Source: Scenedesmus sp. PABB004 (taxonomy: Eukaryota). From it: a stretch of 64,000 bases of DNA. A program made the translations under genes and the position numbers. This document shows positions 19,908-58,233 of the stretch, one piece after another. The notes under the pieces are model-generated. The model saw nothing but the letters and a program-made list of their open reading frames with translations, was not told the origin of the DNA and ran no database searches. Location: NCBI GenBank assembly GCA_014905635.1, contig JABVCE010000034.1, positions 124,001-188,000 on the forward strand, written 5' to 3'. How positions within the stretch are numbered: position 1 is the stretch's first letter; every line of letters starts with the position of its first letter.

Positions 19908-29395
<9,488 letters not shown>

Positions 29396-31036: not shown

Positions 31037-31932
31037 TTAGCGGCCCACCAGACCCGGGCGCACGACGCCGACGCCGCCGACCACGGCCGGGCGGCCGACC
31101 ACACCCACGCCCGGGCGCCCCACGACGGTGGTGGTCGACCGGATGCAGCGGTCGCCTGCGGGCGGGCGGCAGCAGCAGAGGGGTGTGTGTGTGTGTGTGT
31201 GTGGGGGGGGGGGCGTGGGCAGCGGCGCGCGACGGGTGGGGCGGCAGCGCACGGCCGAGCGTGCGGGCAGCATCGCGCGAAGCCAGCTGCAGCGCAGGGG
31301 ACGGCGCGCCCCTCACCGACAGGGCCGGGGATCAGACCACCGGTGCAGGCCTGTCGGGGAGAGGGTGGCGGTTGGTGGCAGGGAGGTCAGGTCAGGCGAG
31401 CGGCCGGGTGCGGCGCTGGCGGGGCCGGGCGCGCGAGCGCTCGCGCACAGGAGGGCCCCTGCTCGCTCACCGTGCAGGTGCGGCGGCCAGCGCCCCAGGT
31501 CCTGTAGGTCGCGCAGCCAGCGATGGTGGTCAGGGCGGCCTGTGGCGGGGAGGGCGTGCGGCGGGGCGGCGGCGCGCGGGCGGTGCGGTGAGGTGAGCAG
31601 CGGCACAGTCACCGGCCACCGGTCACACCCACCGCAGCACGGCAAGGCGGACCGCCCTGCGCGCTGGCGGTGGACTGCCACCAAAATGGGCGATGCGCGC
31701 CGGGCGCGCCGGCCGCTGGGCGCCGGGCGCGCCGGCCGCTGGGCGCCGGGCGCGGCCGCCGGGGCCATGCTCGCCCCCTCCTGCCGCGCAGCACCGCGCC
31801 CAGCGTCCTGCCGCCCGCGCGATCACGCACCTGGAGCTGGCGGCCCGTCACGGACTCATCGGGGCGCACAGCCTCGGTGGAGGCGGCGAACACCAGCATC
31901 GCGCAGAGCGCCACGGCGACGAAGGACTTCAT
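31037..31932 (-). CDS. Small secreted Cys-rich prepropeptide, copy 1 (107 aa, 4 exons)
   Basis: Exons 31932-31831, 31539-31471, 31350-31317 and 31155-31037 have canonical GT-AG borders and join in frame. Signal peptide MKSFVAVALCAMLVFAASTEA. Confidence 0.8.
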
Positions 31933-32683
31933 GGCGGCTGCTGGGGGGTGCGCGGGGGTGCTGGGCGGCGAGTGGGCGGGCGCGCGGAGCGGGGGAGTGG
32001 CGAGCGGCGCCGCCGGGCCGCTCTTACCGATACGCAACGGAGCTGGACGCGACCTTGACACACCCGCGTGCCCCCTGCCCGGCTCCGGTGCGGTGCGCAT
32101 CGGCGTGGCACGCCAATAGATGCCGGACGCGCTACACTCGCCAGGGCGCCGAGCAGACTGCGCAAGGGGGGGCGCTGTGCCGGCGCACACAGCGTGCTGA
32201 TGGCGGCGCCCGCTGACGCCACCGTGGCGCCCCGCGGGTCCCCTGACCGCGCAAAAGCTCTAGTAAGATCTCGACGCAGACCTGACGCTGGGGGCAGCCA
32301 GTACGGGACCTAGCGCCAGCGGCGGCGGCTGGCGGCGGGCGGCTGCGCTGGCCGCGCGGCGGCGGCTACGCTGGCCGCGCAGCTCGGCCCCAGCAGCTCT
32401 GAACAACGGCGGGATCGGTCCCAGCAGCTGCTCGGGAGGCAGCCGCAGGCTCCCTGGCAACGGCACGGTTCAACACGCGTGCTGCCCGCAGGCGCACGCG
32501 CGCACAGCACGCCGCCGCGCTCCGGCCACCCGCGCCCGCCGCACGGGGTGTCGTTGTGGCCCGCTCACACGCAGCACCCACACGCGTTCCTTGGGTGGTG
32601 AGGCATGGTCGGTTTGGTGCCAGGACGCATGCGCGTGTGCTGCATCAGGGTGTGGCGTTCGGCCGCGCTGCAACCTGCTTGTC

Positions 32684-33427
32684 TCAGTGGCCTATCGGGC
32701 GCACCACGGTGGTGGTCTTCTTGACGCACCGATCGCCTGCGGGCGGCGGCAGCGCGCGCAAGGGCGGCTGTTGAGCGGGACGCGCAGCGGCGCTTGCATC
32801 CGCAGCGGCAGCGTGCGGCGGGGCGGTTGAGCCTCACGCACCGGCAGGGCCGGGGATCAGGCCGCCGGTGCAGGCCTGTCGGGGAGAGGGTGGCGGTGGG
32901 AGGGAGGTCAGGTCAGGCGAGGGGCCGGGTGCGGCACCCGGCGAGCGGCCGGGTTTTTGGCTGGGCGCTCGCGCGGTTGATCGCTCACCGTGCAGGTGCG
33001 GCGGCCAGCGTTCCAGGTCCTGTAGGTCGCGCAGCCAGCGATGGTGGTCAGGGCGGCCTGTGGCGGGGAGGGTGTGCGGCGGGGCGGCGGCGCGCGGGCG
33101 GTGCGGTGAGGTGAGCAGCGGCACAGTCACCGGCCACCGGTCACACCCACCGCAGCACGGCAAGGCGGACCGCCCTGCGCGCTGGCGGTGGACTGGCACC
33201 AAAATGGGCGATGCGCGCCGGGCGCGCCGGCCGCTGGGCGCCGGGCGCGGCCGCCGGGGCCATGCTCGCCCCCTCCTGCCGCGCAGCACCGCGCCCAGCG
33301 TCCTGCCGCCCGCGCGATCATGCACCTGGAGCTGGCGGCCCGTCACGGACTCATCGGGGCGCACAGCCTCGGTGGAGGCGGCGAACACCAGCATCGCGCA
33401 GAGCGCCACGGCGACGAAGGACTTCAT
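32684..33427 (-). CDS. Small secreted Cys-rich prepropeptide, copy 2 (85 aa, 4 exons)
   Basis: Same exon structure as copy 1: MKSFVAVALCAMLVFAASTEAVRPDESVTGRQLQ|AALTTIAGCATYRTWNAGRRTCT|ACTGGLIPGPAG|DRCVKKTTTVVRPIGH*. Confidence 0.8.
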
Positions 33428-34287
33428 GGCGGCTGCTGGGGGGTGCGCGGGGGTGCTGGGCGGCGAGTGGGCGGGCGAGCGGAGTGGCGGAGTGGGGAAT
33501 GGCGCCGCTGCCGGGCCGCTCTTACCGATGCAACGGAGCTGGTTAAGCTAGTGAACAAATCCTGACGCCCCTACGCCGTACGCCTGTACGAGGGCTTTTG
33601 ATGTGGAGATTTCACGTTGAACGCGCCAGGCAGCGTGGCGCGCGTTGGCCTTTTGGGCGGCTGTCAACAGCGGCGACCGGCTTTCGCCCGTTACGCCGGC
33701 CGCGGCGGGCGAAGGCGCGCCCTGCGGCGCCTGGCCAGCTGCACCGAGGTCGCATGCAACCGTGCGGATCAGATCGGCGCGCCGGCGGGCCTGGAGCTCA
33801 GGGTTGCACGCGCGCGCGCCGCGCCAGCTCTGCCAGCGGAGAACGCCGCGCTGCGCCGCAGCCACGGGGCAGCACCACGAGAGCACCACGCGAGGTGTGG
33901 CGGCTCAGCGTCCATTGCGTGGTGATGATGCCCAGCCGGCAGCAGCGCTAGGAGGAGAAAGACGAACAACACGGTGCCCTCACTCAAGTGCAACCTGCGT
34001 GCAGCCTGCGCGCATGCGTTTGCCCGGCGCCCAGGCCATCCCCCCGCCGCCGCTGCGCGCCGTCGAGGGGCCCAGCAGCGGCGCCCCGCCGCAGGCACGG
34101 GCCTGCGCGGCTTATGCGACGCCGGCGCGGCGCCGGCGCGGCGCGGCTGGGGCCGCGCGCGCTCGCGCCCGCCCCCCCCCCCCCCCCCCCCCCTCCGCGA
34201 CCCGGGGTCGGTCCCCGGGGCTCCGGCTCGGCGTGGAGGGCTCGCGCCCGCCCCCGCCGCCTCACTCCACGCCCTCACTCCACGCCC

Positions 34288-34962: not shown

Positions 34963-37265
34963 ACGCGCGCGGTCGGCGGACGCGCGCGGCGCGCGGTCGG
35001 CCGCACGCCGCGGCGTGCTGCGGGCGCGGCATGGGGCGGTGGGGCCGTGCCTGGAAGCGCTGTGGCGAGGTGAGGTCAAACTCTATGAAGCTGAAGTCGA
35101 GGCGCTGCGACCTGCGGGGCAGGGGGGCAGGGGGGGCAGAGGGGCAGAGGGGCGGAGGGGCGGAGGGGGGCAGGGCGAGCGGGGCGTCAGCTGGGCGCGG
35201 CGGGCGAGGGCGCGCCAGCCGCGGGCGCTGCGGGCGCGGCGCGGCGGGCGGGCCCGCACCCGGGGTTGACCGGGGGTAACGGTTGACAAAGACGCGGCGG
35301 AAGTGGGTCAGCGGGTAGCGGTTGCCGGCAAAGAGCTTGGAGAGCTTGCGCCCCGGCGGGTTGCCGTACAGGAAGCACCTGGCGCGGGGCACGCGGCGCG
35401 GGGCACGCGGCGCGGGGCCGGTGGCGCGAGCGGCCGCCGCCGCCGGCGGCGCGCCCGGGCGCGCGCAGGCCCGCCGCGCTGGCGCGCAGGCCGTCCGCGC
35501 TGGCGCGCAGGCCGTCCGCGCGCTGCCCCCGCGCGCCTCACTTGTACTTGGTGTTGAACATGATGCCGTACGCGATCTCGCTGCCGCTGATGGTCGCGAC
35601 CGCCGCGGCGGCGCGGCCGCGCGCGAGCGGCGCGAGCAGCTTGGGCGCCTGCGGCGCGCGCGCGCGCGCGCGGCGCGGGGTGAGCCTCGCCGCGCCAGGC
35701 CCGCGGGCCGCCGGGCGGCTGGCGACGTGCCGCCGCCGCCGCGTGGCGCGTGGCGCGGCGCACCCGCATGCGCTGCTCGACGTAGACGTAGTTGCGGCCA
35801 GGCACCAAGATCGCAAACAGCGCGTCGCTCCTGCGGCAGCGCCCGCGGCGGCAGCGCCCGCGGTGGCAGCGCGCGGCGCTGAGGGGGCGGCCGGCGCACG
35901 CGCGAGCAGCAGCAGAGGCCGCCGCAGCCGCGCGCCGCCGCCGCCGCCCGCGCGGCTCACTTGGCGTAGAGCTTGGCGAGCTTGGCGGCCGCGGTCGCGC
36001 CGTCGGCGGCGAGCAGCGTGAAGGACGTGCTGGTCACCGCCACGCGGCGCCGCGCCTCGAGCACCACCTCCACAACCACGCCCATCATGCCTGCATGAGA
36101 GGGAGCGCGCGCCGCTGAGACCGTAGCGGCGGCGGACGCCGCGGCGTCGCCGGCGGCGTCGCCGGTGCCGGCGCGGGCGGCGGCGCGGCGCACCGTAGCT
36201 GCAGGTGAACGCCGCGAGCTCGTCCGGCGTGGCAGCCTTGCTCAGCTTGACGAAGCGGCCCGACTGCGGACACACGCGGGGGCGCGAGCGCGGCGCGGTC
36301 GGCGCGCGCGGCGCCGCCCCGGCGGTGCCGGCTCGCCCGCGCCGCCGCGCGCCGCGCGCACGCGCGTGGCCCGTGCCCTCGCCGCGCCGCACCTCGTCCA
36401 CGTAGGTCAGCTCCGACACCAGCGCCGACAGGTAGCCGGGGCCTGGGCGGCGCGGCAGCGGGGGCGGCACGCGCGTCTCGGCAACGCCGGGCACGCAGGC
36501 TGCCTGGGCGCGGCTGGCAGCGGCGGCCGCACGCGCGCGCCGCGCACCGTCGAGGCTGCTGTCCTTGCTGGTGCACACCGCGAGGCTGCCAACCGTCGCG
36601 TCGCCGATCTCCGGGCTAAACGACAGCTCCAGGTCCTGCGCGGCGGCAGTGTGAGCGCGCGGCGCGAGCGCGGCGCCGGCGCGGCCGCAGGGCGCCCCAC
36701 GGCCAGCACGCCGCGCGGCGGCGCACGTGCTGCGCGAGGAAGTCGTGCGCGTCCGCGAGCGTCACGCCCGCCTGCAGGCGCACGCACGGCCCCGGCTCCA
36801 GGCCGAGGATCTTGTTCAGGCCTGCCGCGGCGGGCGCGCGGCGCGGCCGCGCAGCGGCAGTTGGGGCGAGCGGCTGCCGGCGGCGCGCCGGGCGGCGCGT
36901 CGTGCCACGCGCCTGCGCGCGCGCCGCGACCCGCGCCGCTGCGCCTGGCGCTGCCCCACGACGCGCGCGCGCCGCCCGGGAAGCGCCGCAGCGGCCGCGG
37001 CGGCGGCGGCCGCTGCAGTGCGACCCTCGGCGGCGCAGTGAGCGGTGTGCGTTTCACCCTGTTCACCTTTGAGGTGCAAGATGGTCCCCCCCGGGCAGGT
37101 CACACAGCCGTTCACCGAGTGCAGCGAGCCCACAGCCAGCAGGGGGCTCGGGAACGTCTGCGCATCGCGGACGACGGCCGCCACGGCCTCTGCGCTGTCC
37201 GCGCTGGCCACCGCGGCCGGCGTGGAGGACTGCGTGAGCCCCCAGTTGACCACGGCGCCCGCCAT
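34288..37265 (-). CDS. FAD-linked oxidoreductase (FAD_binding_4; aldonolactone oxidase/GULO-like); multi-exon
   Basis: VVNWGLTQSSTPAAVAS, LLAVGSLHSVN (His at the covalent-FAD position), VRLQAGVTLADAHDFLAQH, PEIGDATVGSL, GMMGVVVEVVL, C-terminal RFLTPYF. Confidence 0.85.
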
Positions 37266-37609
37266 GGCTGCTACGACGCCGCCCGGGCAGCGCAGAGGGG
37301 GGCTAGATGGAGCGCGGCGTGTGCGGCAGCGACGCGGCGTGATCCTGCGGTCGCGTTGGGCTGTCGAGTGGCACGCGCGCCGGCCGCGGCCGGTCGCGTT
37401 GGCCGACGCAGGTCCCGCGCCGGCGCCGGCACCACGCAAAGCCGCCGCCGTTCGGCCCCGCCAGCGCGCGCGGGCGGTCGGCGCGGCGCGGGCGCGCGTC
37501 CGGTGTGGTCACAGGCGGGCGCGTCGACCGCCACGGCCGCGGCCCACCAGGCCGGGCCGCCGTGCGCAGCCCCGCGCGTTCGCCGCCACGCCACGGCCTC
37601 CGCCCGCCC

Positions 37610-39349
37610 TCACACAAACTTGGCGCCCTCCGGGTCCAGCGCCACCACCTTGGCGCTGTTGACCTCCAGCCCGCCGGAGCCGCGGAACGCGGCGCCCATC
37701 GCCTCGGCGACGCGCGCGCCGGTGTCGGGGTCGGGCACGACCGCGACGGCGGTCGGCCCCGCGCCGCTGATGGTGCAGCCGTACGCGCCTGCGCCGCGCC
37801 GCGCGGGGAGGGTCAGGCCGAGACACACGCGATGCATGGGCGCCCGCGCGACACCCTCGCCGCGCGGCGCGCGCGGTGCGCGCGCCGCCGCACCCGCCGC
37901 CTTGGCGGCCGCCTTGACCGCGAGCAGCCCCGGGATGAGCGGCGCGCGCACGGGCTCCACGATCACGTCGCTGTCCAGCGCGGAGCCCAGCAGCTCCGCG
38001 TCGCCGCCGAGGATGGCCGCCACGAGCGCGCCGCCCTGGCAGCTGTTGTGGATCATGGACTTGAACGGCACCTGGCCGGGGACCCAGGGGGGCGGGCGGC
38101 GCCTTGGGGCGGGGCGCCCCGCCGTGCGCCCGCGGCAGCCGGCGCCTCGCCGCCCGCGCCGCTGGCCCCTCGCCGCCGCGCGCGCCGCCGGGCCGCACCT
38201 CTTGCGGCAGCACCGCGCGCATCTGCTTCGTCGGCGCCTCGAAGCAGGGGTTGACCAGCACAAACCACAGCGGCGCCGCGTTGTTCGCGCCCGCAAACGG
38301 CAGCGGCACGAGCTCCAGCGGGTCGCAGCTCCTGCGCGCGGCGTGGCGGCTCATTGGGTCGCGCCCGCCGCGGCCGCCGCGCCGCGGCCGCCGTCCCCGC
38401 CGCGCGCGGCGCGGCGCCGCCGTGCGCGCGCCGCGTCGGCTCACCGCACGAGGACGAACCCACCGAGCAGCGCGGGGCCCACGTTGTCGGCGTGGTACCC
38501 GCTGACCGCCGCCTCGCTCGCCAGGCCCGCCACGACGAGCTCCGACTTGCTCAGCGGCGAGCCAAAGAGGCCGTTGACCGCCCACGCCGCCGCCGCGGCG
38601 CTCGCCGCGCTGCTGCCCATGCCGCTGCCCAGCGGCAGGCCCTGCGGGCGCGGGCGCGCGCGCGGACGCTCGCGCCGCGCCGACCGCGGCCGGCCTGCAC
38701 AGCGCGCTGCGTGCATGCGCGCGCGCTCGTGCGCCACCGCCGCCGCCGTCGCAGCCGCCGCCGCAGTCGCAGCCGCCGCTGCACCTTGTCGAGTGTAAGT
38801 GCCACGCCGCAGCTGGGGCTGCCCAGCAGCTTGAGCGTTTCACTGGCGGCGATGCCGATGCAGTTGTCCGAGGGGTCGAGGCTCAGCCGGCCGCCGTCGC
38901 CGCGGATGGCCTCGATCACGACCGCGCCGGGCTGGTCCTTCAGCACCCGCGCCGTCACCGTGTCGCCGTCGCCCTGCCGCCGGCCGCGGGGGCAGTGAGC
39001 CGGTGGGGCGGGACCCGGGCGAGCGCCACCAGCCGCAGCGCGGCCGCGCGCCGCGGCGCCGGTCGGCGGCAGCAGCGCGCGCCGCTGCCGCCGGCGCCTG
39101 CCCCGCGGCGCCGGCCCTGCGCCGCACCTCGACGGCGCAGCCCAGCCAGTCGAATCCGGGGCCCAGGTTGGCGATCGTGGCGGGCGCGAAGGCCGTGGCC
39201 TCGCTCTGCACGGGGTCCAGGAAGACCTTGCCGCCCGCCACCACGCGCCCCGAGCCCGCCCGCGCCGCCACGCGGCGCCCGGCAATCGACCGCGCCGCGC
39301 ACTGGCGACACGGCGCGCTGCCGGCCCGAACGCCCGCGCTGCGCTGCAT
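37610..39349 (-). CDS. HSK: Homoserine kinase, plastid-targeted (GHMP family); multi-exon
   Basis: AFAPATIANLGPGFDWLGCAV, GLPLGSGMGSSAASA, GYHADNVGPALLGGF, GCTISGAGPT. Confidence 0.96.
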
Positions 39350-39524
39350 CGCGCCCGCCGCCGGCTCGCGGCGCCGCTGCTGCTCTCGCCGCGGGTGTGC
39401 GGGGCGTATGGCGCGCCGCCGCGGTCGCCTGGCTGGCTGTCCCGTGGCAGTGGCGTGATCGGGGCGGCGGCGCTGGATACGACGGGGCCCAGCACACACA
39501 GGGGTTCAGCTGGCCGGCCGCCGC

Positions 39525-40727
39525 TCAGCCGCGCGGCCGCTTGGCGCCCGCGAGCGCGGGCCGCGCCGGCGCGAGCAGCGCCTCCAGCTGGCCGTACGTC
39601 ACGCCCGCCGCCTCGTCGGTGTCGACGCCGATCTCCTCAAACAGGTCCGCCTGCTTGCCCTCAATGCCCTCGCTGATCGTGTCCCTGCGCGGCGCCGCGC
39701 GGCGCGGCGCGCCGCGCTCGGCGCACTCCGCGCGGCGGCCGGCCGCCGCCGCCGCCGCCGCCGGCCAGCGCCCCGGCCGCAGCCGCGCCGGGCGGGCGCG
39801 GGCGCGGCGCGGCGCGGCGCTCACCAAATGCCTCGGAAGACGCTGCGCCGCTTGCGCCACACCTCCATCGCCTGCCGGAACGCCACCTCCGTCGCGCGCC
39901 GCTCCTCGGGCCGCACCAGCTTCGCGCCGCTGCGCAGCTGCGCAAGCTTCCCCAGCTGAGCGTCCCTGCGCCGCGCAGCAGCACGGGAGCGCGGGCGCAG
40001 GCGCGCGGGCGGGTGGGCGGCGGCCGCGCGCGGCCCGCGCCGCGCCGGCGCCGCCCGCCGACCTGCGCTGTGTGAGGTCGGCCAGCTTGGCCGCGAGCTG
40101 CTCCGCCGTCATGCTGCTGCTCCAGCTGCGCAGCTCTGCGCGCGCACGGCGGCGGCGCGCGTCGGCGCGGCCGGCGGGCGCAGCGCGGCGCCGCGCCGCA
40201 CGCGCGCGGCGCGCAGAGCAGCCCCGCGCGCGCCACGCGCCCGCCTCGGTCTCCTTGACCGCTTTGTTGGCCGCCACGAGCGCCTCATGCAGGGCCTTGA
40301 GCTCCGCCTTGGCCGCGTCCGTGTCCTGCGAGCGCGCGCCCGCGCGCTCGGCATGGCGTGCGCCCCGGCGCCCGCGCGCGCGCCGTGCCCAGTGCGCCGC
40401 GCGCACGGGTGCCGCACCTCCTTTGACAGCACCTCCAAGCCCTCCTGCTTGGGAATGAAGAGCTTGGTCTTGCCAAACTCCTGCGCCGCCGGCGGAGCTG
40501 CTCGCCGCCGGCCGCGCCGGCGGCGCCGGGCGCGCGGGCCGCCGCTGCGGCCGCCAGCGCACCTTGCACACGATGCGCCCCGCGTCGGTCAGCGCGTCGC
40601 AGGCCTTCACCACCGCGGCCTTCTTGATGCCCGCGCTCTGCAGGTTGTCCACCAGCCCCTGCACCCCAAAGGGCTTGTTGTGCTGCGTGATCAGGCCGAG
40701 CACCGCCGCCTCCGCTGCAGCCGCCAT
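39525..40727 (-). CDS. HOP2: Homologous-pairing protein 2 (TBPIP/Hop2); multi-exon
   Basis: AEAAVLGLITQHNKPFGVQGLVDNLQSAGIKKAAVVKACDAL...CK|EFGKTKLFIPKQ winged helix, coiled coil, and C-terminal WRKRRSVF...DTISEG...DLFEEIGVDTDE. Confidence 0.9.
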   Translation of the reverse strand: MAAAAEAAVLGLITQHNKPFGVQGLVDNLQSAGIKKAAVVKACDALTDAGRIVCKVRWRPQRRPARPAPPARPAASSSAGGAGVWQDQALHSQAGGLGGAVKGGAAPVRAAHWARRARGRRGARHAERAGARSQDTDAAKAELKALHEALVAANKAVKETEAGAWRARGCSARRARAARRRAAPAGRADARRRRARAELRSWSSSMTAEQLAAKLADLTQRRSAGGAGAARAARGRRPPARAPAPALPCCCAAQGRSAGEACAAAQRREAGAARGAARDGGGVPAGDGGVAQAAQRLPRHLVSAAPRRARARPARLRPGRWPAAAAAAAGRRAECAERGAPRRAAPRRDTISEGIEGKQADLFEEIGVDTDEAAGVTYGQLEALLAPARPALAGAKRPRG

Positions 40728-41075
40728 GGCGCGCTCGCGACGTGCTCAGCGGGGCGCGCGGGAGGGAGCGGGGCCTTCACGTGAGGGTGTCCCGCGGCGG
40801 GCGGAGTGGCGGCGGGGCGGCAGCGCGGCGCACCGCTTGCCGGCGCGCCGCCCGTTCGTGCGGCCGTCATTCCGCGGAGCCCTGTTGGCGAGCACGTCAA
40901 GCGCGCCGCCCCGGCGCCGCTCCATTGCCACCATCGCACCAAATTGACGGCGCGCGCCACTGCCGCAGCTCGGGCGCCGCGCGCGCCGCCCAGCCCGCAC
41001 TGCGGAGCGACGGCGGCGCCTCCCAGGGCCGGCCCAGCCGCGCGCTCGACACCCGCAGCGAGCCGATCGGGCTGC

Positions 41076-45741: not shown

Positions 45742-48700
45742 TCAACACCCCCCGTAGGCGTCAAGGTGCTGCTGGAGGCGCTGCATGATGACCGGGAGGC
45801 AGGGGCGCTCGGCCGCGCTGCCCGCCCAGCACGCCTCGGCGAGCGCGCGGTACGCCGGCGGCGTGGAGGCGGGCAGCTGCGGGCGCAGGCCCTGGAAAAT
45901 GGCGCGCGCGAGCGCGGGGCCGGGCGCGGCGCCCTTGTAGGGCTTCTGGCCGGCGTAGAGCTCGTACATGAGCACGCCAAAGCTGAACACGTCCACCGCG
46001 GCGCCGACGCTGGAGCCAGTCTGGAAGCGCTCCGGCGCGAGGTGGGAGAGCGTGCCCGCGGTGTCGTTGTTGCGCACGGTGCCCTTGTCGCCGAGCAGCT
46101 TGCTCAGCCCAAAGTCGGCGAGCTTGGCCACAAAGCCGCAGCCGCGCCCGCTGGCGGTGTGGAGCAGCACGTTCTCGGCCTTGATGTCGCAGTGCACCAC
46201 GCCGCAGCTGTGCATGTAGGCCAGCGCGCCGGCGACGTCCAGCAGCACGGTGTAGAGCAGGCGCATGTTGATCTTGAGGCGCCCGTCCGGCAGCTGCTTG
46301 TGCAGCAGCTGCCCGTGCCGCACCGCCGTCCAGAGGTTGCCGCGGTCGCAGCGCTCCATGACGACAATGTTGTAGGTGTCGCGGCTCGCGTCGCCGAGGT
46401 CGGCGGGGCGCGCCTTGCGGAAGCAGATGTTGAGCGCGCCGCTGCTGGCGTGCCCGCTGCTGCCGCGGCTGCGGCGGCGCTCCTCAACCATGTCGGTGAG
46501 GCAGGCGTAGGTGTTCACGATGTTTGGGTGGCGCAGCGTGGACAGCGTGGCCATCTCCATCGCAGACTTGATGGGAATGCCCAGCTTGTCGTCGTGCGGC
46601 ACGCGCATGACCTGGCACGGCGGCGGCGCAGCGGCGCGGCGGCGTGAGCGGGAGGGGAGAGGGGGCTGGCGCTTGCTGGCGCGCAGGCAGGCAGGCAGGC
46701 AGGCGCGCAGGCAGGCAGGCGGGCAAGCGGGCGGGCGGGCGGGCGGGCGGGCGGGCGGGCGGGCGGGCGGGCGGGCAGCGCGCGGCGTGCCGCGACGCGC
46801 CGCGCGACGCCCCGCCTCACCTTGACGGCGGTGCGCGAGCCCTGCCAGCTGCCGGCGTACACGGTGGAGAAGCCGCCCTTGCCCAGCACGGTGTGCAGCT
46901 CCAGCTCCTGCACGTACTCGCTGGCGCACTCCTGCTGCTTGTCCTGCAGCTCCCACACCTCTTGCAGCACCGCGAGCTTGCTGCTGTGGGATGGCAGCGG
47001 AATGGAGGCAGAGGGCGTGGGCGGACCTGCAAGGTCGGAGCTTGCAAACGAGCACGTAGAGCCCTCAACCTGCGGGGGCACAAAGGGGGGGGGTGTCAGC
47101 AGGGCTGCTTTGGCGCGTGGGCAGGCGGCAAGCACGCGCGCGGTCAGCAAGCTCTGCACCCACCTGGCCGGCCAGCGCATCAAGCGTCGCGGGCAGCGCC
47201 ACCAGCTGCTGGTGCAGCATCGCCTGCAGCAGCGCCGCCTGCTCCACCACGACCGGGTTGCTGCCCAGGAAGGGGCCGGGCTTGTCCGAGGTCACGTACA
47301 GCCCACCCACAGCGGCGCCATCGGCGCCAAAGAGCGGCACCGCCGCGATGCTGCTGACCAGCTCGTCGCCCACGTCGACCATGTCCAGCGCCGCGGCCTC
47401 CTCGCCCTCCGCAGCCAGCGCCGCGCGCGCGTCGGCTACAAACACCTCGCGCTTGGCGCGCGCCGCGTCAGCCAGCAGCGTGCCGGCCGCCGCCACGCGC
47501 GTGATGCGCAGCTGGGGGCAGGCGCTGCTGCTGGGCAGGTCAAAGCTGCCGTACTCCCCAAACGTGTGCGGCTGCAGCGACGGCAGCTGCTGCTGCTGCT
47601 GCTGCTGCTCCGCGTCGCCGCTCGACTCGATGCTCGCCACCTCGCAGCCCTCCTCGCCGGCAGCGAGGCTGCGGCTGGCAAGGTGCAGCAGCAGCAGCTC
47701 GGCGCCGTCGGCGCTCAGCAGGCCCAGCCGCACGCCCAGCTGGCGGTGCGTGGTGGCCGCGAGCAGGTCGCCGCTGTGCTGCAGGAAGGCCGCCGCAAAC
47801 GTGGCGAAGCCGTCACTCGCTGCGTCCACCAGCGCCGCCGCCAGGCCGCTCAGGCCGGACAGCCAGGGGCTGGTGAGCAGCGGCACCAGTCCGGTGCACA
47901 CCATGCTGAGAAGCAGGGGCCAGCTGTCCTCCATGAACGCGCCCGGCTCGGGGCTGGCCAGCACCAGCACGCCCGCGGGCGCGTCCTGGCCGGCCACGAC
48001 GATGTGCGCTGCCAGGAAGGTGCGCAGGCCCGCCTCGCGGTGCAGCGCCACCCAGTCCTGCGCGTTGGGCGCAGCGAGCGCGGGTTGGCGGCGCGCCGAG
48101 GCGGGGGCGCCGCGCAGCCCGGCGCGCCCCGAGCGCCCCGAGCGCCGCGCAGCCGCGGCGCGCGCGCAGCCGCGGCGAGCCGCCGCGCGCGCTCCCCCCG
48201 ACGCCCTGCCCGCGTGCGCGCGCGCACACGCACCTGCGGCAGCGCCCGCGCGTCCGCCTCGCTGCGCACGGTGCGGTAGAGGAAGCTGCAGCCCAGCTGC
48301 ATGCACGCGAGGCTGGGCGCCCAGTGCGCGCCCGTCATCACGCGCTGCCGCTGCAGCGTCGCCGCGCCCGTGCCAGCGGCGCCGGCCAGCATGCACACGG
48401 CGGGGGTGCTGGCGGTGTGTGTGGAGATGCTGCGGGCGGCGAGGCGCCGCGGCGGGCACGTGAGCGCGCGCGCGCAGCGGCGCGCAGCGGCGGCGGCGGG
48501 TGACGCTGCCCCCGCTGGCCCTGTCGCGTGCCTCACCTGACGGTGGCGACGCCCTGCAGCTCCCGCAGCAGGATGCGCGCGGCCCGCTCCCCGGCCTTGT
48601 CGTCCGGTCCCGCGCACGCCGCGGCCAGCTGCGCGAGCACCGTCTTGACCTGTACGGCGGCGGGGCGACGCGCCGGGTGAGGGACGGCCGGCCGAGCGTG

Positions 48701-49662: not shown

Positions 49663-51030
49663 ATGGCGCTCGCGCTGCTGAAGCGCCCGCTGCACCGCGC
49701 TGCCGGCGCTCCCGACGCTGGCTGGCTCGCGCGGCCGGCCTCGCGGCCGCGCCAGGAATCGCCAGGCGGCCTGAAAATGAGCCGGGGCGCATCGCTCACG
49801 GGCTGCGTGACCATCAAGGAGGTGCGGCGGCGCCCCGCGGACGGCCGCGCGGACGGCTCACGCCGCCGCGCGCCGCGCGCCGCGCGCCGCGCGCCGCGCG
49901 CCGCGCGCCGGCCGCCCGCTTGCGCGGCTGACCCGGGCTCCGCGGCCCCACAGGTCATGCACATCCTCAAGGCCCTCTCGGCCGTCCCGACGGGGCACGG
50001 CCACGCCGCCGCGCGCCAGGCTGCGGCCGACGCACTCCTCGGCGCGCTCGGCGGCGCCGCCACGCTGGTCGGGTGAGCGACGCGCCTTGCTGGGGCTAGC
50101 GGGCCGACGCCCGCGCACTCTCGGTGGTCCCCCCCTCCGCCGGCGCCGACGCAGCGCGGAGCGGCCGGTGGCGCGCGCCGCCACGCCTCACGGCCCGCCT
50201 GAGCGCCGCCGCCGCTGCCGCACACCGCCCCCCCCCCCGCAGCATCTACTCCGCCCCGCCCGACGCGGGCACCTGCATGCTGGCCGGCGCGGCCGGCGCC
50301 GGCGCGGAGGTGCTGCGGCGCAGGACCGTCGCGGCCGGCCAGGCGCACGCGGCGTGCCGCTGCTGCAGGCGCCACGCCAGCAGCTTCCTCTACCGCACCG
50401 TGCACAGCGAGGCGGACGCGCGGGCGCTGCCGCAGGTGTGTGTGCGCGCGCGCATGCGGGCAGGGCGTCAGAGGGAGCGCGCGCCGCGGCTGCGCGGCGC
50501 TCGGGGCGCTCGGGGCGCGCCGGGCTGCGCGGCGCCCCCGCCTCGGCGCGCCGCCAACCCGCGCTCGCTGCGCCCAACGCGCAGGACTGGGCGGCGCTGC
50601 ACCGCGAGGCGGGCCTGCGCACCTTCCTGGCAGCGCACATCGTCGTGGCCGGCCAGGACGCGCCCGCTGGCGTGCTGGTGCTGGCCAGCCCCGAGCCGGG
50701 CGCGTTCATGGAGGACAGCTGGCCCCTGCTGCTCAGCATGGTGTGCACCGGCCTGGTGCCGCTGCTCACCAGCCCCTGGCTGTCCGGCCTGAGCGGCCTG
50801 GCGGCGGCGCTGGTGGACGCAGCGAGCGACGGCTTCGCCACGTTTGCGGCGGCCTTCCTGCAGCACAGCGGCGACCTGCTCGCGGCCATCACGCACCGCC
50901 AGCTGGGCGTGCGGCTGGGCCTGCTGAGCGCCGACGGCGCCGAGCTGCTGCTGCTGCACCTTGCCAGCCGCAGCCTCGCTGCCGGCGAGGAGGGCTGCGA
51001 GGTGGCGAGCATCGAGTCGAGCGGCGACGC

Positions 51031-51062
<32 letters not shown>

Positions 51063-53062
51063 TGCCGTCGCTGCAGCCGCACACGTTTGGGGAGTACGGC
51101 AGCTTTGACCTGCCCAGCAGCAGCGCCTGCCCCCAGCTGCGCATCACGCGCGTGGCGGCGGCCGGCACGCTGCTGGCTGACGCGGCGCGCGCCAAGCGCG
51201 AGGTGTTTGTCGCCGACGCGTGCGCGGCGCTGGCTGCGGAGGGCGAGGAGGCCGCGGCGCTGGACATGGTCGACGTGGGCGACGAGCTGGTCAGCAGCAT
51301 CGCGGCGGTGCCGCTCTTTGGCGCCGATGGCGCCGCTGTGGGCGGGCTGTACGTGACCTCGGACAAGCCCGGCCCCTTCCTGGGCAGCAACCCGGTCGTG
51401 GTGGAGCAGGCGGCGCTGCTGCAGGCGATGCTGCACCAGCAGCTGGTGGCGCTGCCCGCGACGCTTGATGCGCTCCACATGCAGGTGCGCCGCGCCCGGC
51501 TGGTAGCTCGCCCAGCCAGCCAGTTGTGCCAACACGCCGCGCTCTGCTGCCCCCTCCCCCGCGCTTGCCAGGCCTGCGTGGTGCCTGAGGCTGACGAGTT
51601 GCTGTCCTCTTCCATGGCCAGCTGTGAGGGCGTGACCTCCAGCGCCACCAACCTCTCGCTGACCACCCACGGCAGCCACCGTCCAGCGGTTCTGCAGAAG
51701 GTGTGGGAGCTGCAGGACAAGCAGCAGGAGTGCGCCAGCGAGTACGTGCAGGAGCTGGAGCTGCACACCGTGCTGGGCAAGGGCGGCTTCTCCACCGTGT
51801 ACGCCGGCAGCTGGCAGGGCTCGCGCACCGCCGTCAAGGTGAGGCGGGGCGTCGCGCGGCGCGTCGCGGCACGCCGCGCGCCGCCCGCCCGCCGCCGCCC
51901 GCCGCCCGCCCGCCGCCCGCCCGCCCGCCGCCCGCCCGCCCGCCCGCCCGCCCGCCCGCCCCCGCCCGCCCGCCCGCCCCCGCCGCCCGCCCGCCGCCCG
52001 CCCGCCGCCCGCCCGCCCGCCCGCCCGCCGCCGCCCGCCCGCCCGCGCCGCCCGCCCGCCCGCCGCCGCCCGCCCGCCCGCGCGCCTGTCTGCCTGCCTG
52101 CGCGCCAGCAAGCGCCAGGCCTCATGCCCCCTCTCCCCTCCCGCTCACGCCGCCGCGCCGCTGCGCCGCCGCCGTGCCAGGTCATGCGCGTGCCGCACGA
52201 CGACAAGCTGGGCATTCCCATCAAGTCTGCGATGGAGATGGCCACGCTGTCCACGCTGCGCCACCCAAACATCGTGAACACCTACGCCTGCCTCACCGAC
52301 ATGGTTGAGGAGCGCCGCCGCAGCCGCGGCAGCAGCGGGCACGCCAGCAGCGGCGCGCTCAACATCTGCTTCCGCAAGGCGCGCCCCGCCGACCTCGGCG
52401 ACGCGAGCCGCGACACCTACAACATTGTCGTCATGGAGCGCTGCGACCGCGGCAACCTCTGGACGGCGGTGCGGCACGGGCAGCTGCTGCACAAGCAGCT
52501 GCCGGACGGGCGCCTCAAGATCAACATGCGCCTGCTCTACACCGTGCTGCTGGACGTCGCCGGCGCGCTGGCCTACATGCACAGCTGCGGCGTGGTGCAC
52601 TGCGACATCAAGGCCGAGAACGTGCTGCTCCACACCGCCAGCGGGCGCGGCTGCGGCTTTGTGGCCAAGCTCGCCGACTTTGGGCTGAGCAAGCTGCTCG
52701 GCGACAAGGGCACCGTGCGCAACAACGACACCGCGGGCACGCTCTCCCACCTCGCGCCGGAGCGCTTCCAGACTGGCTCCAGCGTCGGCGCCGCGGTGGA
52801 CGTGTTCAGCTTTGGCGTGCTCATGTACGAGCTCTACGCCGGCCAGAAGCCCTACAAGGGCGCCGCGCCCGGCCCCGCGCTCGCGCGCGCCATTTTCCAG
52901 GGCCTGCGCCCGCAGCTGCCCGCCTCCACGCCGCCGGCGTACCGCGCGCTCGCCGAGGCGTGCTGGGCGGGCAGCCCGTGCGCGCGGCCGAGCTTCACGG
53001 CGATCGTTCAGCACCTGCAGGTGGGCCGCAGCTGCAGCATCTCGCCGGACCTGCGGGCTTAG
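49663..53062 (+). CDS. TKL/Raf-like protein kinase, inverted paralog (copy B); start could be 49777, and the end may splice at 53021
   Basis: Same exon organisation and intact kinase motifs as copy A, with different N-terminal exons. Confidence 0.85.
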
Positions 53063-54856
53063 CCTGCGGCCAGCGACTGCCACCTGGCGCAGACGGCAAC
53101 TGCTCACCCGCACGGTCGCCGCTCCGCAGGACATAATGCGCCCCGCCAATGCGCACGGTCATGCCTGAGTCACGGCGCTATTCCGCCCATTTCTTGCCGC
53201 CTGGCTGCCCGGCCCTACCGCGCCGCCCGCCGCTGCCTTCCTTGTGCGCGCACCTCGGTGAAGAGCAACTGACCTCATGCGGGGCGCTGCCGCCGCCTCG
53301 CCTTCCAAACTTCCCAACTGCACCAACAACGAGCACTGCTTGGTTTCCCCAGCATCACCGCCGGGTGCCCCGCCCACTGCGCGGCTGGTGGCCCCACCCG
53401 CACTGGTTTTTCACGCGTCTCAGCCTTGGCGAGCGGGGCGCCGCACTGCATGCTGCGTCGTGTGCCAGGCGGCGGGGCTCATGCCGCATGCTGCACAGAG
53501 AACTGTTTGACTGAATCAAGCTGCCGGTGCAGCACCTGCTCGCAGGCTGCCAGTGGTCGTCGCCGGCGCGTGGCGCCGACGAAGCAGTGCTTGCACACTG
53601 ATGACGAACGTTGGCGCTGGGTGCAGGCGGTGCTGCCGCAGCGCCGCGCCGGCGCTATCGGGCTGCGGCAGTGCCGGTGCCGCTAAAAACTGCCTCTTGC
53701 GAACCCAACATCTCTTGCAGCGTGGTGCTGTGGTGCGCACGCGTGCAGCTGGAGGGCATGCGTGCCTCCCCGCACCTGCAGAGGCCGGCCTGCACGCAGA
53801 GCCTGCCGGTTCTGGGCCGCGGTCCGCGAGGAATGAAAGCGCGGCGCGTCGTGCGCTGGCGGCGCGGGGTGCCCCGCCCTGGCCCCGCCTGGCCGCGGTG
53901 CGGCTGTTGACTGTTTGCGCTGCTAGACTGAACAGGGTCAGGTTAGGTCTGATCAGTCATTCAGGTGGCTGTGAATGCTTTTGCGGCGCTCGCGGAGGGC
54001 GCAACGGACGCCATTGCGTGTGCGTCGTTGCTGTTCCAGCCTTGGCAGAATCCTTGGTGGTGCGGTTGCGCCGCGAACGACTGGGTGTAGGCCGGCTGGG
54101 CGCGCGCTTTGCTGCATGAGCTGAGCGCTGAGCGCGGGGCGGAGCGCGGCAAGTGTGGTTATTGTTACTGCAGCGGCACGCCACCGATCACGTGACGCAA
54201 AAGCAGCGGGCAGGTGAGCGCTGGCCGCCCGATCCTCTCCCGACAGCAGCTCGCGGCGTCTCTGCCGATGGGCAGGCCAGGCCAGGCCAGTCCTTGGTCA
54301 CCCCGTCCAAGGGCCAGCCTACAAAAACACACATGGAGGGCAGGGGCACTCCAGCGCGCGAGTGCGTGCGTGCGCGCGCAGCAGAAAGGTTCAGGTACGA
54401 CGTTCTCAGTGTGCATGCTCAGTGCTGCAGTTCATGCTCGTGCATAGGCAGCAAACGAACGCACGCGTCAAGTCACCAAGGGTGGATGTGGCCACAACAG
54501 GTTCAAATGCGCGCGGCACTGCCAGTGTGGTGAGTGCAAGGTGTTCTCGCCGCCCCGCCGGCGCCAACGCAGCAACCAGCACAGGTGCCAGGGCCCCCAT
54601 CTGGGCCGGCCAGCCACGGCAGGCCTTGCTTGATCGCGGCCGCAATCAGTGGCAGTGCCGCACGCGCACCCGTGCGGTTTGGCTGCCACTCCCCCCGCGC
54701 TGCAGTGCCCCCGCGCGCCGCGCCCCCGCGCGGCGCGCCGCCGCCGCCGCAGGGGTGTGTGGCCTCGGTGGCTGGGGTGGCGCGACGCGTTCGCCGGCCG
54801 CCTGCCGCCCCGCCCGCGCACGCGCGCGCGCGGTGGCCGCGGCGCGGCGCCGCGGC

Positions 54857-56737
54857 TCAGTTGAGTGTGATGTCCATGAAGTTCCCATCATACTCGTGCA
54901 TCGCGCACCACCCCGGCGCGGCGGGCGCGGCGTTGGATGGCCCCACGTGCGCGCCGTCGGTGAAGTTCACCTTGAGGCGCGCGAGCTCCATGTCCGCGAC
55001 CGTCGCGAGCGCGCCGCCGCAGAGCGTCGCGCGGTTGGCCTCAAACGTCACGTTGGGTCCGAGGATGAAGTCGCCGCGGATGCGAAAGCCCGGGATCAAC
55101 GGCTGTGCGGTCGCGGGGATCTCGAGGCAGACGCCGCCGCCATTGCGCGCGGTGTTGTTGGCCACCTCCACGCCCGTCAGGGACAGCAGGGGCGTGCCGT
55201 ACTGGTAGTGCGCGTGCAGCCCTGCGCCGCACTCGGTGCCGTTGCCGCCGTTGGCAAAGCCGGCCCAGCCGTTCTCCCAGAGGCGCAGGCCGGGGCCTAT
55301 GAAGCCGTGGATGTGGCCGAAGAGCAGCACGCCGTGCTGCACGTTGCGCCCGATCGACACCGCGCCCGACACGTTGGCCTGCAGCAGCTGCAGGTCGCCG
55401 GTGCACTCGACAAACAGCCCGATCTTGTTCTCCACCAGCCCGCTGCGGCCCAGCAGGTTGAGCGCGCTGAACTGCACCATGCTGCAGCCATAATACAGGC
55501 CGTAGTTGGAGTTGCGGCTGGCGCGTGCGGGCGCGGGCGGCGCCGGGCGTGAGGCGGGGACGGGGAGGGACGCGCGGCGGCGCGGGCGCGCCGCCGCGGG
55601 CGTGTGGCAGCGCTGCGCGCACGCGCGCCCTCGCGCGGGCACCTTGACTTCAGGTCTGTTGCCGAGAAGTTGCCGCCGCCCAGCACGCGCACGCCGTCGA
55701 CCAGCCAGGTCGCCGACACGCCAAACAGGTGGATCTCGGGGTCGCTGCGCGGCGGCGCGGCGGCGGCGCGCGGCGGCAGCGGCGCGCGTCGGCGGCGGCG
55801 CACGCAGCCACGCGCAGGCCCTGCCCGGCCCGCCGCCAGCTGGCAGCCAGCACCCGGGCGCGCGGCGGCGGCGGCGGCGGCGGCGGCAGTGTGGGCGGTG
55901 GCGCGCGCGCGCACCCGCCGGCGATGGTGTCGATTGTGATGCCCGCGTATGGCAGTGGCGCCTTGGGCGGCGCCTCGGCGCCGCCCTGCAACGGCGTGGC
56001 ACCCGTGCGCGCGCGCGCGGTGGCTGCCGCCGCGCCGGTGACCGACACGTTGGCCAGCAGTATGTGCTCCACGTCGAGCAGCTCCACCACCGTCGGCACG
56101 CCGCACGGCCGCCGCTCGCAGCTCGGCGTCGGCGCGTGCCCGCCCGGGGGCTCGCCGATGAGCATGAAGCGCACGCCGACGAGCGTGAAATTGTGGATGC
56201 CGCCGTCGCCGTGCACAAAGAGCGCCGGCAGCGCGGCGTTGACGGAGAGGTCGACGACGATCGTGTGGCCGCAGTCGCTGACCACGGTCACGCGCGGCTC
56301 GTGCGTCGCCGTCTCCCGCGCGTCGTGCGTGATGGACCACGCCGGCGCCGCGCCGCGGCGCCAGCTGGTGCCGGCGGGGCCGTCGCACGCGAGCCGGATG
56401 ACGGCGCGGTCGCCGCCGCCGCCGCACGCGGTGTAGTTGGCCGATATCGCCAGCAGCGCGCCGTAGTCGGCGGCCACGCAGTCGCTGTCTGAGACCGGCA
56501 CTGGAAAGAAGGGGGGCAGGGATTTGGTGAGGGTGGTCAGGCGGGCCGCGCGCGCGGCGGCACCCGCGGAGCGCGCGGAGCGCTGCCGCCGCTGCGGGCG
56601 CCGGTGCCGCAGGCGCCGCGGGCCGGCGGCGCACCTATTTGCTGCATCGCTGCGCACGGCGGCGCCAGTAGAGCCATCAGCAGCGCCAGTGTCGCCAGCG
56701 GCAGCCCGCCGCGCGCGCGCAGCCCGGCCCGAGCCAT
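54857..56737 (-). CDS. Secreted right-handed beta-helix (pectin-lyase-like / Pmp-repeat-like) glycoprotein, copy 1; 4 exons
   Basis: Signal peptide MARAGLRARGGLPLATLALLMALLAPPCAA; VEVANNTARNGGGVC and VTFEANRATLCGGAL (FxxN/GGA-type repeats); many NxS/T sequons. Confidence 0.7.
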
Positions 56738-58233
56738 GTTCCGCGCTTCTGCTGCCCGGGCGGGGCAGCCCGCGGCGCCCGGCGGGCGCCGAGCCGGGCG
56801 ATAGACGAGGGAGCGCTCGGGGCGTTCGTGGAGGGAGCTGGGCGCGCCGAGGGGCCGTCCGGGCACCGAGAGGCGTGCGTGTGGCCCGGCGAACGCTGCC
56901 CGGGTCGCTCCTGCGGGCCGGCTGCGAGCAGGCCGCCGCGAGGAACGCAGGCGCAGCTGAATGGGCGAGCTGGGGCGCCGCGGCCGGGCCCGGGGGGGAC
57001 GGGCCGGGACAAAAACTTCCGAGGCGGCTGTTCAGGTCGCCCGCGCCGCTGGCCGGACGCCACGCGCGGTCCCCGCCGCGCCTAAAAAAAGGCCGGCCTG
57101 CACGCAGAGCCTGGCGGTTCCGGGCCGCGGTCCGCGAGGAATGAAAGCGCGGCGCGTCGTGCGCTGGCGGCGCGGGGTGCCCCGCCCTGGCCCCGCCTGG
57201 CCGCGGTGCGGCTGTTGACTGTTTGCGCTGCTGGACTGAACAGGGTCAGGTTAGGTCTGATCAGTCATTCAGGTGGCTGTGAATGCTTTTGCGGCGCTCA
57301 CGGAGGGCGCAACGGACGCCATTGCGTGTGCGTCGTTGCTGTTCCAGCCTTGGCAGAATCCTTGGTGGTGCGGTTGCGCCGCGAACGACTGGGTGTAGGC
57401 CGGCTGGGCGCGCGCTTTGCTGCATGAGCTGAGCGCTGAGCGCGGGGCGGAGCGCGGCAAAGTGTGGTTATTGTTACTGCAGCGGCACGCCACCGATCAC
57501 GCGACGCAAAAGCAGCAGGTGAGCGCTGGCCGCCCGATCCTCTCCCGACAGCAGCTCGCGGCGTCTCTGCCGATGGGCTGGCCAGGTCAGTCAGTCTTGG
57601 GTCACCCCGTCCAAGGGCCAGCCCCGCCCAACGCACGCAGATGGAGGGCAGGGACGCTCCAGCGTGCGAGTGCGTGCGCTCGCAGGGTTGAGATACGACG
57701 TTCTCAGTGTGCATGCTCAGTGCTGCAGCTGCCGGTTGTGCCCTGCGGTGCCGCAGGTTTATGCACGAGCAAAGGCAGCAAATCAACGCGAGTCCCGCAC
57801 GCGTCAAGTCACCAAGGGTGGATGTGGCCACAACAGGTTCAAATGCGCGCGGCACTGCCAGTGTGGTGAGTGCAAGGTGTTCTCGCCGCCCCGCCGGCGC
57901 CAACGCAGCAACCAGCACAGGTGCCAGGGCCCCCATCTGGGCCGGCCAGCCACGGCAGGCCTTGCTTGATCGCGGCCGCAATCAGTGGCAGTGCCGCACG
58001 CGCACCCGCGCGGTTTGGCTGCCACGCCCACGCGCGCCGCGCCCACCCGCGCGGTTTGGCTGCCACTCCCCCCGCGCTGCAGTGCCCCCGCGCGCCGCGC
58101 CCCCGCGCGGCGCGCCGCCGCCGCCGCAGGGGTGTGTGGCCTCGGTGGCTGGGGTGGCGCGACGCGTTCGCCGGCCGCCTGCCGCCCCGCCCGCGCACGC
58201 GCGCGCGCGGTGGCCGCGGCGCGGCGCCGCGGC

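Follow-up and report, generated by a model that had tools for sequence, protein, structure and literature searches.

The 64,000-nucleotide (nt) stretch of Scenedesmus sp. PABB004 DNA analysed here (the window, whose coordinates are used throughout; 77.9% G+C, free of N) carries on its minus strand two tandem, head-to-tail genes of four exons each. Splicing by coordinates placed copy B at 33427-32684 and copy A at 31932-31037, and in-silico splicing gave products of 85 and 107 amino acids (aa), respectively. Both genes are confirmed as real, and more than chance lies behind them: junctions in RNA contigs, a deposited protein, colinear homologues in three other genomes or assemblies and the G+C content by codon position all agree. 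Copy A was known before as a hypothetical protein, and no match to copy B turned up in the protein collection. We consider it somewhat probable that they are nuclear genes that arose by tandem duplication, each with its own promoter, and that they belong to a family restricted to Scenedesmaceae whose small, secreted, cationic proteins carry two disulfides and act outside the cell, a ligand- or defence-type role being likelier than that of an enzyme or a bulk structural polymer.

Coordinate splicing reproduced exactly the peptide strings, the exon structure and the two divergent tails that had been described in an earlier, sequence-only reading of the window (there copy B was copy 2 and copy A copy 1). 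The pattern C-x12-C-x2-C-x12-C proposed in that reading was found with its spacing of 12/2/12 in both copies. All six introns have GT..AG ends and a C-rich tract before the acceptor, with lengths of 105-291 nt. The G+C content at codon positions 1, 2 and 3 was 0.59-0.69, 0.63-0.64 and 0.91, respectively, and that of the introns was 0.78-0.80. Spliced copy A is letter-for-letter equal to the NCBI entry 'hypothetical protein HT031_006369 [Scenedesmus sp. PABB004]' of 107 aa (P0001 in our collection), which was found with a 40-aa query made of exon 1 (34 aa) and six codons into intron 1. The remark that the open reading frames (ORFs) never recover the full products is thus a minor point, copy A being a deposited gene model already. 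For the copy B product, searches able to show it gave no match in the protein collection.

The evidence supports that copy B is transcribed and spliced at the predicted introns, intron 3 being backed by three studies. Five sequencing runs shared few words with the window (0.05-0.13), and contigs of four of them (X1, X2, X4 and X5) were placed. In X5, an oligo-dT RNA-Seq run of a pond metatranscriptome, one contig with no mismatches joined 32735 to 32841 (cut +1), which is exactly intron 3. In X4, a soil library, a single contig of 151 nt connected exons 4, 3 and 2 across introns 3 and 2; at 33060 the same contig ended in 14 loose letters equal to 33329-33342, the end of exon 1, indicating that intron 1 was removed as well. 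A contig of X2, a freshwater RNA-Seq run, covered the 3' untranslated region (UTR) and exon 4 and continued with eight letters equal to 32843-32850 in exon 3. The contigs of RNA libraries over the copy B junctions had no mismatch or one, and the junctions proposed from the letters were confirmed for copy B by these spliced contigs of environmental RNA libraries. Another joint in X2, from 32338 to 32739, was treated as spurious (a side of 21 letters, with 188 letters between). The unspliced form was carried by X1, which is probably DNA of a related strain (90-99% likeness). Its differences in exons 2 and 3 (33046, 32864 and 32867) are synonymous by codon reading, and its indels are confined to introns. 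The X4 contig has one change, at 33020, which replaces Arg by Lys, and the homologue P0006 also has Lys there. RNA contigs ended at 32545 and 32550, about 20 nt past a TGTGA, which faintly suggests a poly(A) site of copy B near 32545-32550. No RNA contig of the four placed runs fell on copy A, which is no evidence that this copy is silent; in the placement, 31173-31227 in its intron 3 was skipped as a repeat. This segment is an (AC)n microsatellite after a C-run, which is missing in copy B and explains part of the length difference between the two introns. The features of both copies are collected in Table 1.

Table 1. Features of the tandem genes copy B and copy A in window coordinates.
Feature	Coordinates	Strand	Remarks
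Copy B 5' UTR and proximal promoter	33428..33505	-	Duplicated at 31933-32010 upstream of copy A with 97% identity; repeat family D1
Copy B exon 1	33326..33427	-	34 codons: start codon, signal peptide, spacer ending R-Q-L-Q
Copy B intron 1	33058..33325	-	268 nt, GT..AG; removal supported by loose end of X4 contig
Copy B exon 2	32989..33057	-	23 codons: A-A-L-T-T-I-A-G, Cys1, Cys2; covered by X4 contig
Copy B intron 2	32876..32988	-	113 nt; skipped in X4 contig, with CT..AC ends on the plus strand
Copy B exon 3	32842..32875	-	34 nt, phase 1 end; Cys3 and second hairpin; X4 and X5 contigs
Copy B intron 3	32737..32841	-	105 nt; skipped in X5 and X4 contigs; X2 loose end
Copy B exon 4, coding part	32684..32736 (stop included)	-	Cys4, short tail ending Gly-His, stop codon
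Copy B 3' UTR, minimum extent	32545..32683	-	RNA contig ends at 32545 (X2) and 32550 (X4); TGTGA 115 nt past the stop
Copy A exon 1	31831..31932	-	102/102 same as copy B; product equals P0001
Copy A exon 2	31471..31539	-	67/69 same as copy B; Gly replaces Asn
Copy A exon 3	31317..31350	-	31/34 same as copy B: two synonymous changes, one Val/Ala
Copy A intron 3	31156..31316	-	161 nt, contains (AC)n microsatellite
Copy A exon 4	31037..31155	-	Cys4, T-T-T-V-V, three V-V-(G)-R-P repeats, Gly-Arg end, stop codon

The tandem unit has a repeat period of 1495-1525 nt, and the likeness of the two copies falls from their 5' to their 3' parts. Identity over aligned bases was 98.9% in intron 1, with one 23-nt indel, and 90% in intron 2, with 23 gap columns; in intron 3 it was 40% over all columns, and the 3' flanks were essentially unalignable. 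The 300 nt aligned upstream of the two copies were 82% identical overall. Across exon 3 and the opening codons of exon 4, the copies differ by four synonymous and four conservative changes (Val/Ala, Ile/Val, Arg/Lys and Ser/Lys). We infer from these comparisons an older duplication, the 5' half of which was later homogenised, probably by gene conversion, while the coding part was kept under constraint. Searches of the window with both products (tblastn) showed no third copy. One contig of X1 joins 32071 to 33568 and skips one repeat unit (1496 nt); this may reflect how the assembly ran through the repeat, or a haplotype with a single copy. In favour of two copies in this relative as well, the intergenic segment 32021-32332 is spanned by further X1 contigs.

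The pair belongs to a small family. When P0001 was compared by phmmer with 1.84 billion representative proteins, unrestricted in length, five matches at E <= 0.001 emerged, all of 76-127 aa, and no larger protein carrying the module of copies A and B was seen. A profile of four members gave 11 matches among 5096 candidates (P0001 to P0011): four from Tetradesmus obliquus (A0A383VCW0, OEZ85_000558, OEZ85_000559 and OEZ85_000560), one from Scenedesmus sp. NREL 46B-D3 (COO60DRAFT_1567971), that of PABB004, two Logan proteins and three metagenome proteins of the Joint Genome Institute (JGI). By both searches, members were found only in Scenedesmaceae and on unnamed contigs. The consecutive locus tags OEZ85_000558, _000559 and _000560, which share a longest contig of 3.9 Mb, suggest a tandem trio. 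Six of the 11 are complete (P0001-P0004, P0006 and P0007), whereas P0005 stops after Cys3, P0008, P0009 and P0011 match in the first-exon part only and P0010 in the last part only; these five were omitted from alignments A3 and A4. P0005 (OEZ85_000558) is a deposited model of 76 aa with unrelated residues after the third Cys, which probably reflects a wrongly predicted last exon or decay of the third copy in the trio. The cluster of P0003 (OEZ85_000560) was named 'Apple domain-containing protein' by one source; our Pfam scan showed no PAN/Apple domain in it, and the name looks inherited or mistaken. All other source names are 'hypothetical' or 'uncharacterized'. A search of metagenome contigs with profile A2 and then with P0009 gave no confirmed related locus, and a literature search found no paper mentioning the accessions or locus tags of the family.

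Alignment A3 showed M1, S3, F4, R31, L33, A35, the four Cys, T77, T78, P83 and G84 to be invariant. The Cys spacing 12/2/12 was kept in all seven full-length sequences, both window copies included. A hydrophobic N-terminus of signal type, followed by the invariant R-x-L-x-A, is conserved in the family and carried by both copies, though the spacer before R-x-L-x-A varies from 0 to about 10 residues. After Cys4 come T-T-(V/A)-V, (R/K)-P-G and a repeat tail that varies between members; in copy B the motif is reduced to its minimal form, Ile standing where Gly is otherwise found, and the tail is minimal too, at 13 residues. In the tails a T-T-V-V-R-P-G-like unit recurs in variants, one to about seven per tail (V-V-G-R-P in copy A, G-V-Y-G-R-P-G in P0003); tail length is 22-28 residues in P0004, P0006 and P0007. 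Net charge past R-x-L-x was +4 to +10, with an isoelectric point of 9.4-11.5. Six of the eight known C-termini end in Gly-Arg (copy A and P0003) or Gly-His (copy B, P0004, P0007 and P0010); those of P0002 and P0006 have neither. The Cys residues, R-x-L-x-A and TTVV-RPG were conserved in three or more genomes, at an overall identity of 44-51%.

Neither sequence nor fold comparison linked the family to a known one. In Pfam, P0001 matched no family at E <= 10, and the best match of the six members together was TAP35_44 (E 0.063); the profile search of PDB sequences had no significant match (best E 0.43). AlphaFold2 (AF2) models of P0001 and P0004 had a mean predicted local distance difference test score (pLDDT) of 47.9 and 55.5, respectively. 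In P0004 the Cys head was the best predicted part, with 10-residue block means of about 68-77 over residues 41-70, and folded into two hairpins (strands 40-46/50-56 and 60-63/68-71) with Cys on their flanks; the model of P0001 had the same strand layout. The P0004 tail was below 50. Foldseek returned nothing at E <= 0.001 for either model; its best rows were EGF domains (coagulation factors, LRP2) with E >= 0.4 (best 0.43) and probability <= 0.41. The best Z of VIA-align was 3.8, on helices matching the signal peptide. Structure neighbours of residues 35-82 in the Atlas were VSP, DUF4215 and EGF clusters (template modelling score by query 0.4-0.71 over 41-48 residues, model pLDDT 0.47), and a feature search of the Atlas yielded no usable match. 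A double disulfide-braced hairpin of the EGF-like or CxxC-repeat type is a lead suggested by these models. The sequence-only reading had spoken of a possibly undescribed family of cationic four-Cys peptides with an N-terminal signal, and this description held: the motif is in 7/7 members at the charges given above, the family has no Pfam domain, its sources call the members 'hypothetical' or 'uncharacterized', and a match to a characterised family, looked for in Pfam, PDB and fold searches, was not significant in any of them.

The member of strain NREL 46B-D3, COO60DRAFT_1567971, is presumably JGI protein 1567971, following the naming habit of JGI. In the published supplementary tables this protein is listed with SignalP = 1 (supplementary file 4) and no transmembrane segment (TM = 0), and without a domain or BLAST description (PMC7955037), in line with the hydrophobic N-terminus conserved in the family. 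Its expression values ranged from about 5 to 89, in a table whose unit may differ from that of the figures of the paper, which is fragments per kilobase of transcript per million mapped reads (FPKM). In the cold series the first time point gave about 81 versus 25, and in the heat series the last gave about 5 versus 19, expression being some 2-3 times higher in the cold and lower in the heat (PMC7955037). The protein was placed in the 'blue' co-expression module, which those tables and text term cold-responsive and report as enriched in translation and amino-acid metabolism (PMC7955037).

In the reading that we favour, the product would consist of an endoplasmic reticulum (ER) signal peptide, a short spacer ending R-x-L-x-A, a four-Cys head of about 30 residues, the motif Thr-Thr-Val-Val-Arg-Pro(-Gly) and the tail. 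The head (C-x12-C-x2-C-x12-C) is predicted to form two consecutive disulfide-braced beta-hairpins, and the tail to be disordered and strongly cationic, built of Val, Gly, Arg and Pro (in some also Tyr) in one to about seven motif variants and usually ending in Gly-Arg or Gly-His. The protein would be exported, oxidised to two disulfides and active outside the cell as a small, stable, cationic molecule. The conserved head would be the functional unit. The tail, evolving fast as repeats are added or dropped, would adhere to anionic material, for instance the polymers of walls or the envelopes of microbes. Several points weigh on the other side. Secretion, disulfides and extracellular action are inferred, and size, charge, cysteines and the tandem arrangement are all that would define the functional class. 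By their mean pLDDT, both structure models deserve no more than low to middling confidence. Introns 1 and 2 of copy B are backed by run X4 alone, which is labelled metatranscriptomic and was flagged 'probably DNA'. Finally, the enrichment reported for the 'blue' module says nothing on defence or signalling (PMC7955037).

Two other accounts, both rather unlikely in our judgement, start from the tail and from the processing sites. In the first, the family would be structural proteins of the cell wall or matrix: the Cys head would anchor or cross-link them, and the Val/Gly/Pro/Tyr repeats would behave like an elastomer open to cross-linking or glycosylation, within the wall or from cell to cell of a coenobium. 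The composition of the tail fits this, being Val, Gly, Pro and Arg, with Tyr in T. obliquus P0003 (five units of G-V-Y-G-R-P type), and Thr clusters stand before the repeats; the predicted disorder of the tail fits as well. Such repeats may resemble motifs of elastin and resilin. However, the tails of several members are very short (13 residues in copy B and 22-28 in P0004, P0006 and P0007), the window copies have no Tyr in theirs, and Ser-Pro or hydroxyproline-type motifs are missing. Furthermore, no protein of this size was noticed among the secreted wall-fraction proteins of one published account, although few tryptic peptides would be expected from such a protein (PMC11839794). Our literature search found nothing relevant on a T. 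obliquus secretome.

The second account treats the product as a prepropeptide: a subtilase of S1P type would cut after R-x-L-x, a carboxypeptidase would trim the terminal Arg or His, and peptidylglycine alpha-amidating monooxygenase (PAM) would amidate the exposed Gly, so that a hormone or antimicrobial peptide with disulfides and a C-terminal amide would result. No member departs from R-x-L-x-A despite a spacer of 0 to about 10 residues, and 6/8 C-termini keep Gly-Arg or Gly-His despite very different tails. Both copies have what a PAM substrate would need in its sequence: a signal peptide, and at the C-terminus a Gly with nothing but basic residues after it (Gly-Arg in copy A, Gly-His in copy B). 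Such ends are uncommon in Chlamydomonas reinhardtii, where 24 of 771 signal-peptide proteins are reported to end in Gly(K/R)n, and verified amidated peptides there came from proteins ending in -GRRR and -GR and also after removal of Arg and His (PMC6919629). As listed in another account, PAM occurs in Chlamydomonas, Gonium, Volvox and Ostreococcus, and peptidylglycine alpha-hydroxylating monooxygenase (PHM) in Coccomyxa and Chlorella (PMC6529398).

Against this, in P0002 and P0003 RELK comes right after A-L-E-A, a likely signal-peptidase site, which would leave a 'propeptide' of four residues. Tail repeats themselves naturally finish in Gly-Arg (e.g., ...VYGR-P...), and the C-termini of P0002 and P0006 end otherwise. 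The chlorophytes named there as bearing PAM or PHM do not include Scenedesmaceae (PMC6529398), and a literature search found no paper joining 'peptidylglycine' with Scenedesmaceae names. The exon boundary at R-x-L-x is not kept in relatives either: the unspliced ORF fragments P0008, P0009 and P0011 run on without a break from RELK-AA... as far as Cys1, and P0010 reads through the position of intron 3 of the copies, so that intron positions appear to differ between close relatives. The sequence-only reading had taken exon 1 to equal signal plus propeptide, ending at RQLQ. The coincidence belongs to the PABB004 copies and fails as a pattern in the family, as the read-through fragments and the spacing of P0002 and P0003 show. 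The rest of the architecture proposed there, namely the gene models, a secretion-type signal, a cationic product, four Cys and an undescribed family, stood. Its C-terminal Gly-basic signal recurs at the 6/8 C-termini named, but in the members ending in Arg it coincides with the end of a repeat unit, and its appeal to PAM of Chlamydomonas does not apply directly, the host being Scenedesmus. Cleavage after R-x-L-x and C-terminal trimming and amidation are possible extras on the favoured reading of a small secreted two-disulfide protein.

In its boldest form, which we regard as quite improbable, the idea would make the family Scenedesmaceae-private precursors of peptide signals, R-x-L-x releasing the two-disulfide head and the Gly-His or Gly-Arg end being trimmed and amidated, for communication between cells or against bacteria. 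If true, coccoid green algae would use cystine-stabilised amidated peptides in processes such as coenobium formation, the behaviour of gametes or the response to stress, and the cilia-linked amidated-peptide signalling of Chlamydomonas would gain both another class of peptides and another order of algae. That these are transcribed but functionless young lineage-specific genes, or that the product is not secreted, is very unlikely: the narrow taxonomic range, the missing known domain and a window rich in recent segmental duplications would suit it, but the four Cys, R-x-L-x-A and TTVV-RPG are kept across the genomes compared above, exon changes are synonymous-biased versus indel-rich introns, and the expression of the orthologue is regulated according to the published tables (PMC7955037).

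The surroundings of the pair were scanned with Pfam in 143 long ORFs between 21 and 43 kb. Exons of a topoisomerase II gene lie at 21849-26877 on the plus strand (DNA_gyraseB, TOPRIM_C and DNA_topoisoIV, E down to 2e-24), and the minus-strand neighbours at 36819-40745 encode a FAD_binding_4 protein, a GHMP kinase (N and C domains) and the Hop2/TBPIP meiotic recombination protein. These are ordinary nuclear genes, and nothing ties them to the gene pair. Farther away, an inverted duplication (45772-48165 and 50477-53020; arms of 895, 599 and 449 nt with 98% complementarity) seems to carry a protein-kinase exon, as a kinase-like motif appeared in tblastn noise at 45898-46059 on the minus and 52733-52894 on the plus strand. 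A tandem duplication at 53782-58770 has a period of about 3.3-3.4 kb, 98-99% identity and three collinear 300-nt families. Together with the studied pair, these repeats mark a stretch rich in recent segmental duplications, or they are possibly assembly artefacts.

Outside Chlamydomonas, peptide signalling and peptide defence have hardly been studied in green microalgae, and the present family is compact, expressed and marked by clear conserved features in a genus used in biotechnology and ecology. It also exposes an annotation gap, as the protein collection returned copy A and no match for its RNA-supported neighbour, copy B. The tiny gene is furthermore a neat case for studying intron gain, loss or sliding, given the apparently different intron positions of its relatives. 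The finding would be an ordinary one if the family is merely one more lineage-specific small secreted protein.

The closest comparison among green algae is with the precursors of amidated peptides in C. reinhardtii (Cre12.g487700 and Cre03.g204500), which likewise have a signal peptide (Luxmi et al., 2019; PMC6919629). As described there, they also share a C-terminal Gly with basic residues, some needing removal of Arg and His, and belong to tandem-clustered gene families; they differ in being large (94 kDa in Cre03.g204500) and proline-rich, with paired-basic sites (PMC6919629). In contrast, the members of the Scenedesmaceae family have 85-127 aa, a four-Cys head and a tail lacking paired-basic sites, and their amidation is hypothetical. 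The family searches showed no sequence similarity to those precursors, the matches being Scenedesmaceae and unnamed contigs only.

RALFs of plants (PF05498) are small, cationic, secreted peptides with four Cys in two disulfides, which are released at R-R-x-L by a subtilase of S1P type. The invariant R-x-L-x ahead of the Cys region is a point of likeness. RALFs have a Cys pattern other than 12/2/12, a YISY-type motif and a dibasic site, and no repeat tail. The Scenedesmaceae site has a single Arg (R-Q-L-Q, R-E-L-K or R-E-L-Q), no YISY-like motif is present in the alignment, and PF05498 was not among the Pfam results, which gave P0001 no match at E <= 10 and the six members only the weak one to TAP35_44. 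A likeness of the C-terminal ...R-P-G-x-G-H to CEP peptides of plants was dropped, the segment being too short to test. EGF-like and CxxC modules (EGF, Giardia VSP and DUF4215) may resemble the head in its predicted pair of disulfide-braced hairpins around a central C-x-x-C. They differ from it, as the head has four rather than six Cys, occurs as one unit and not in arrays and has no Pfam match, and the fold matches were insignificant and drawn from low-confidence models. Penaeidins, arasin and crustins are chimeric antimicrobial peptides of crustaceans in which a Cys-stabilised domain is joined to a Pro/Arg- or Gly-rich one; some are amidated, and they form multigene families. Although their domain order is reversed, homology is lacking and their hosts are crustaceans and not algae, the Scenedesmaceae family is like them in being small, cationic, predicted to be secreted and built of two parts.

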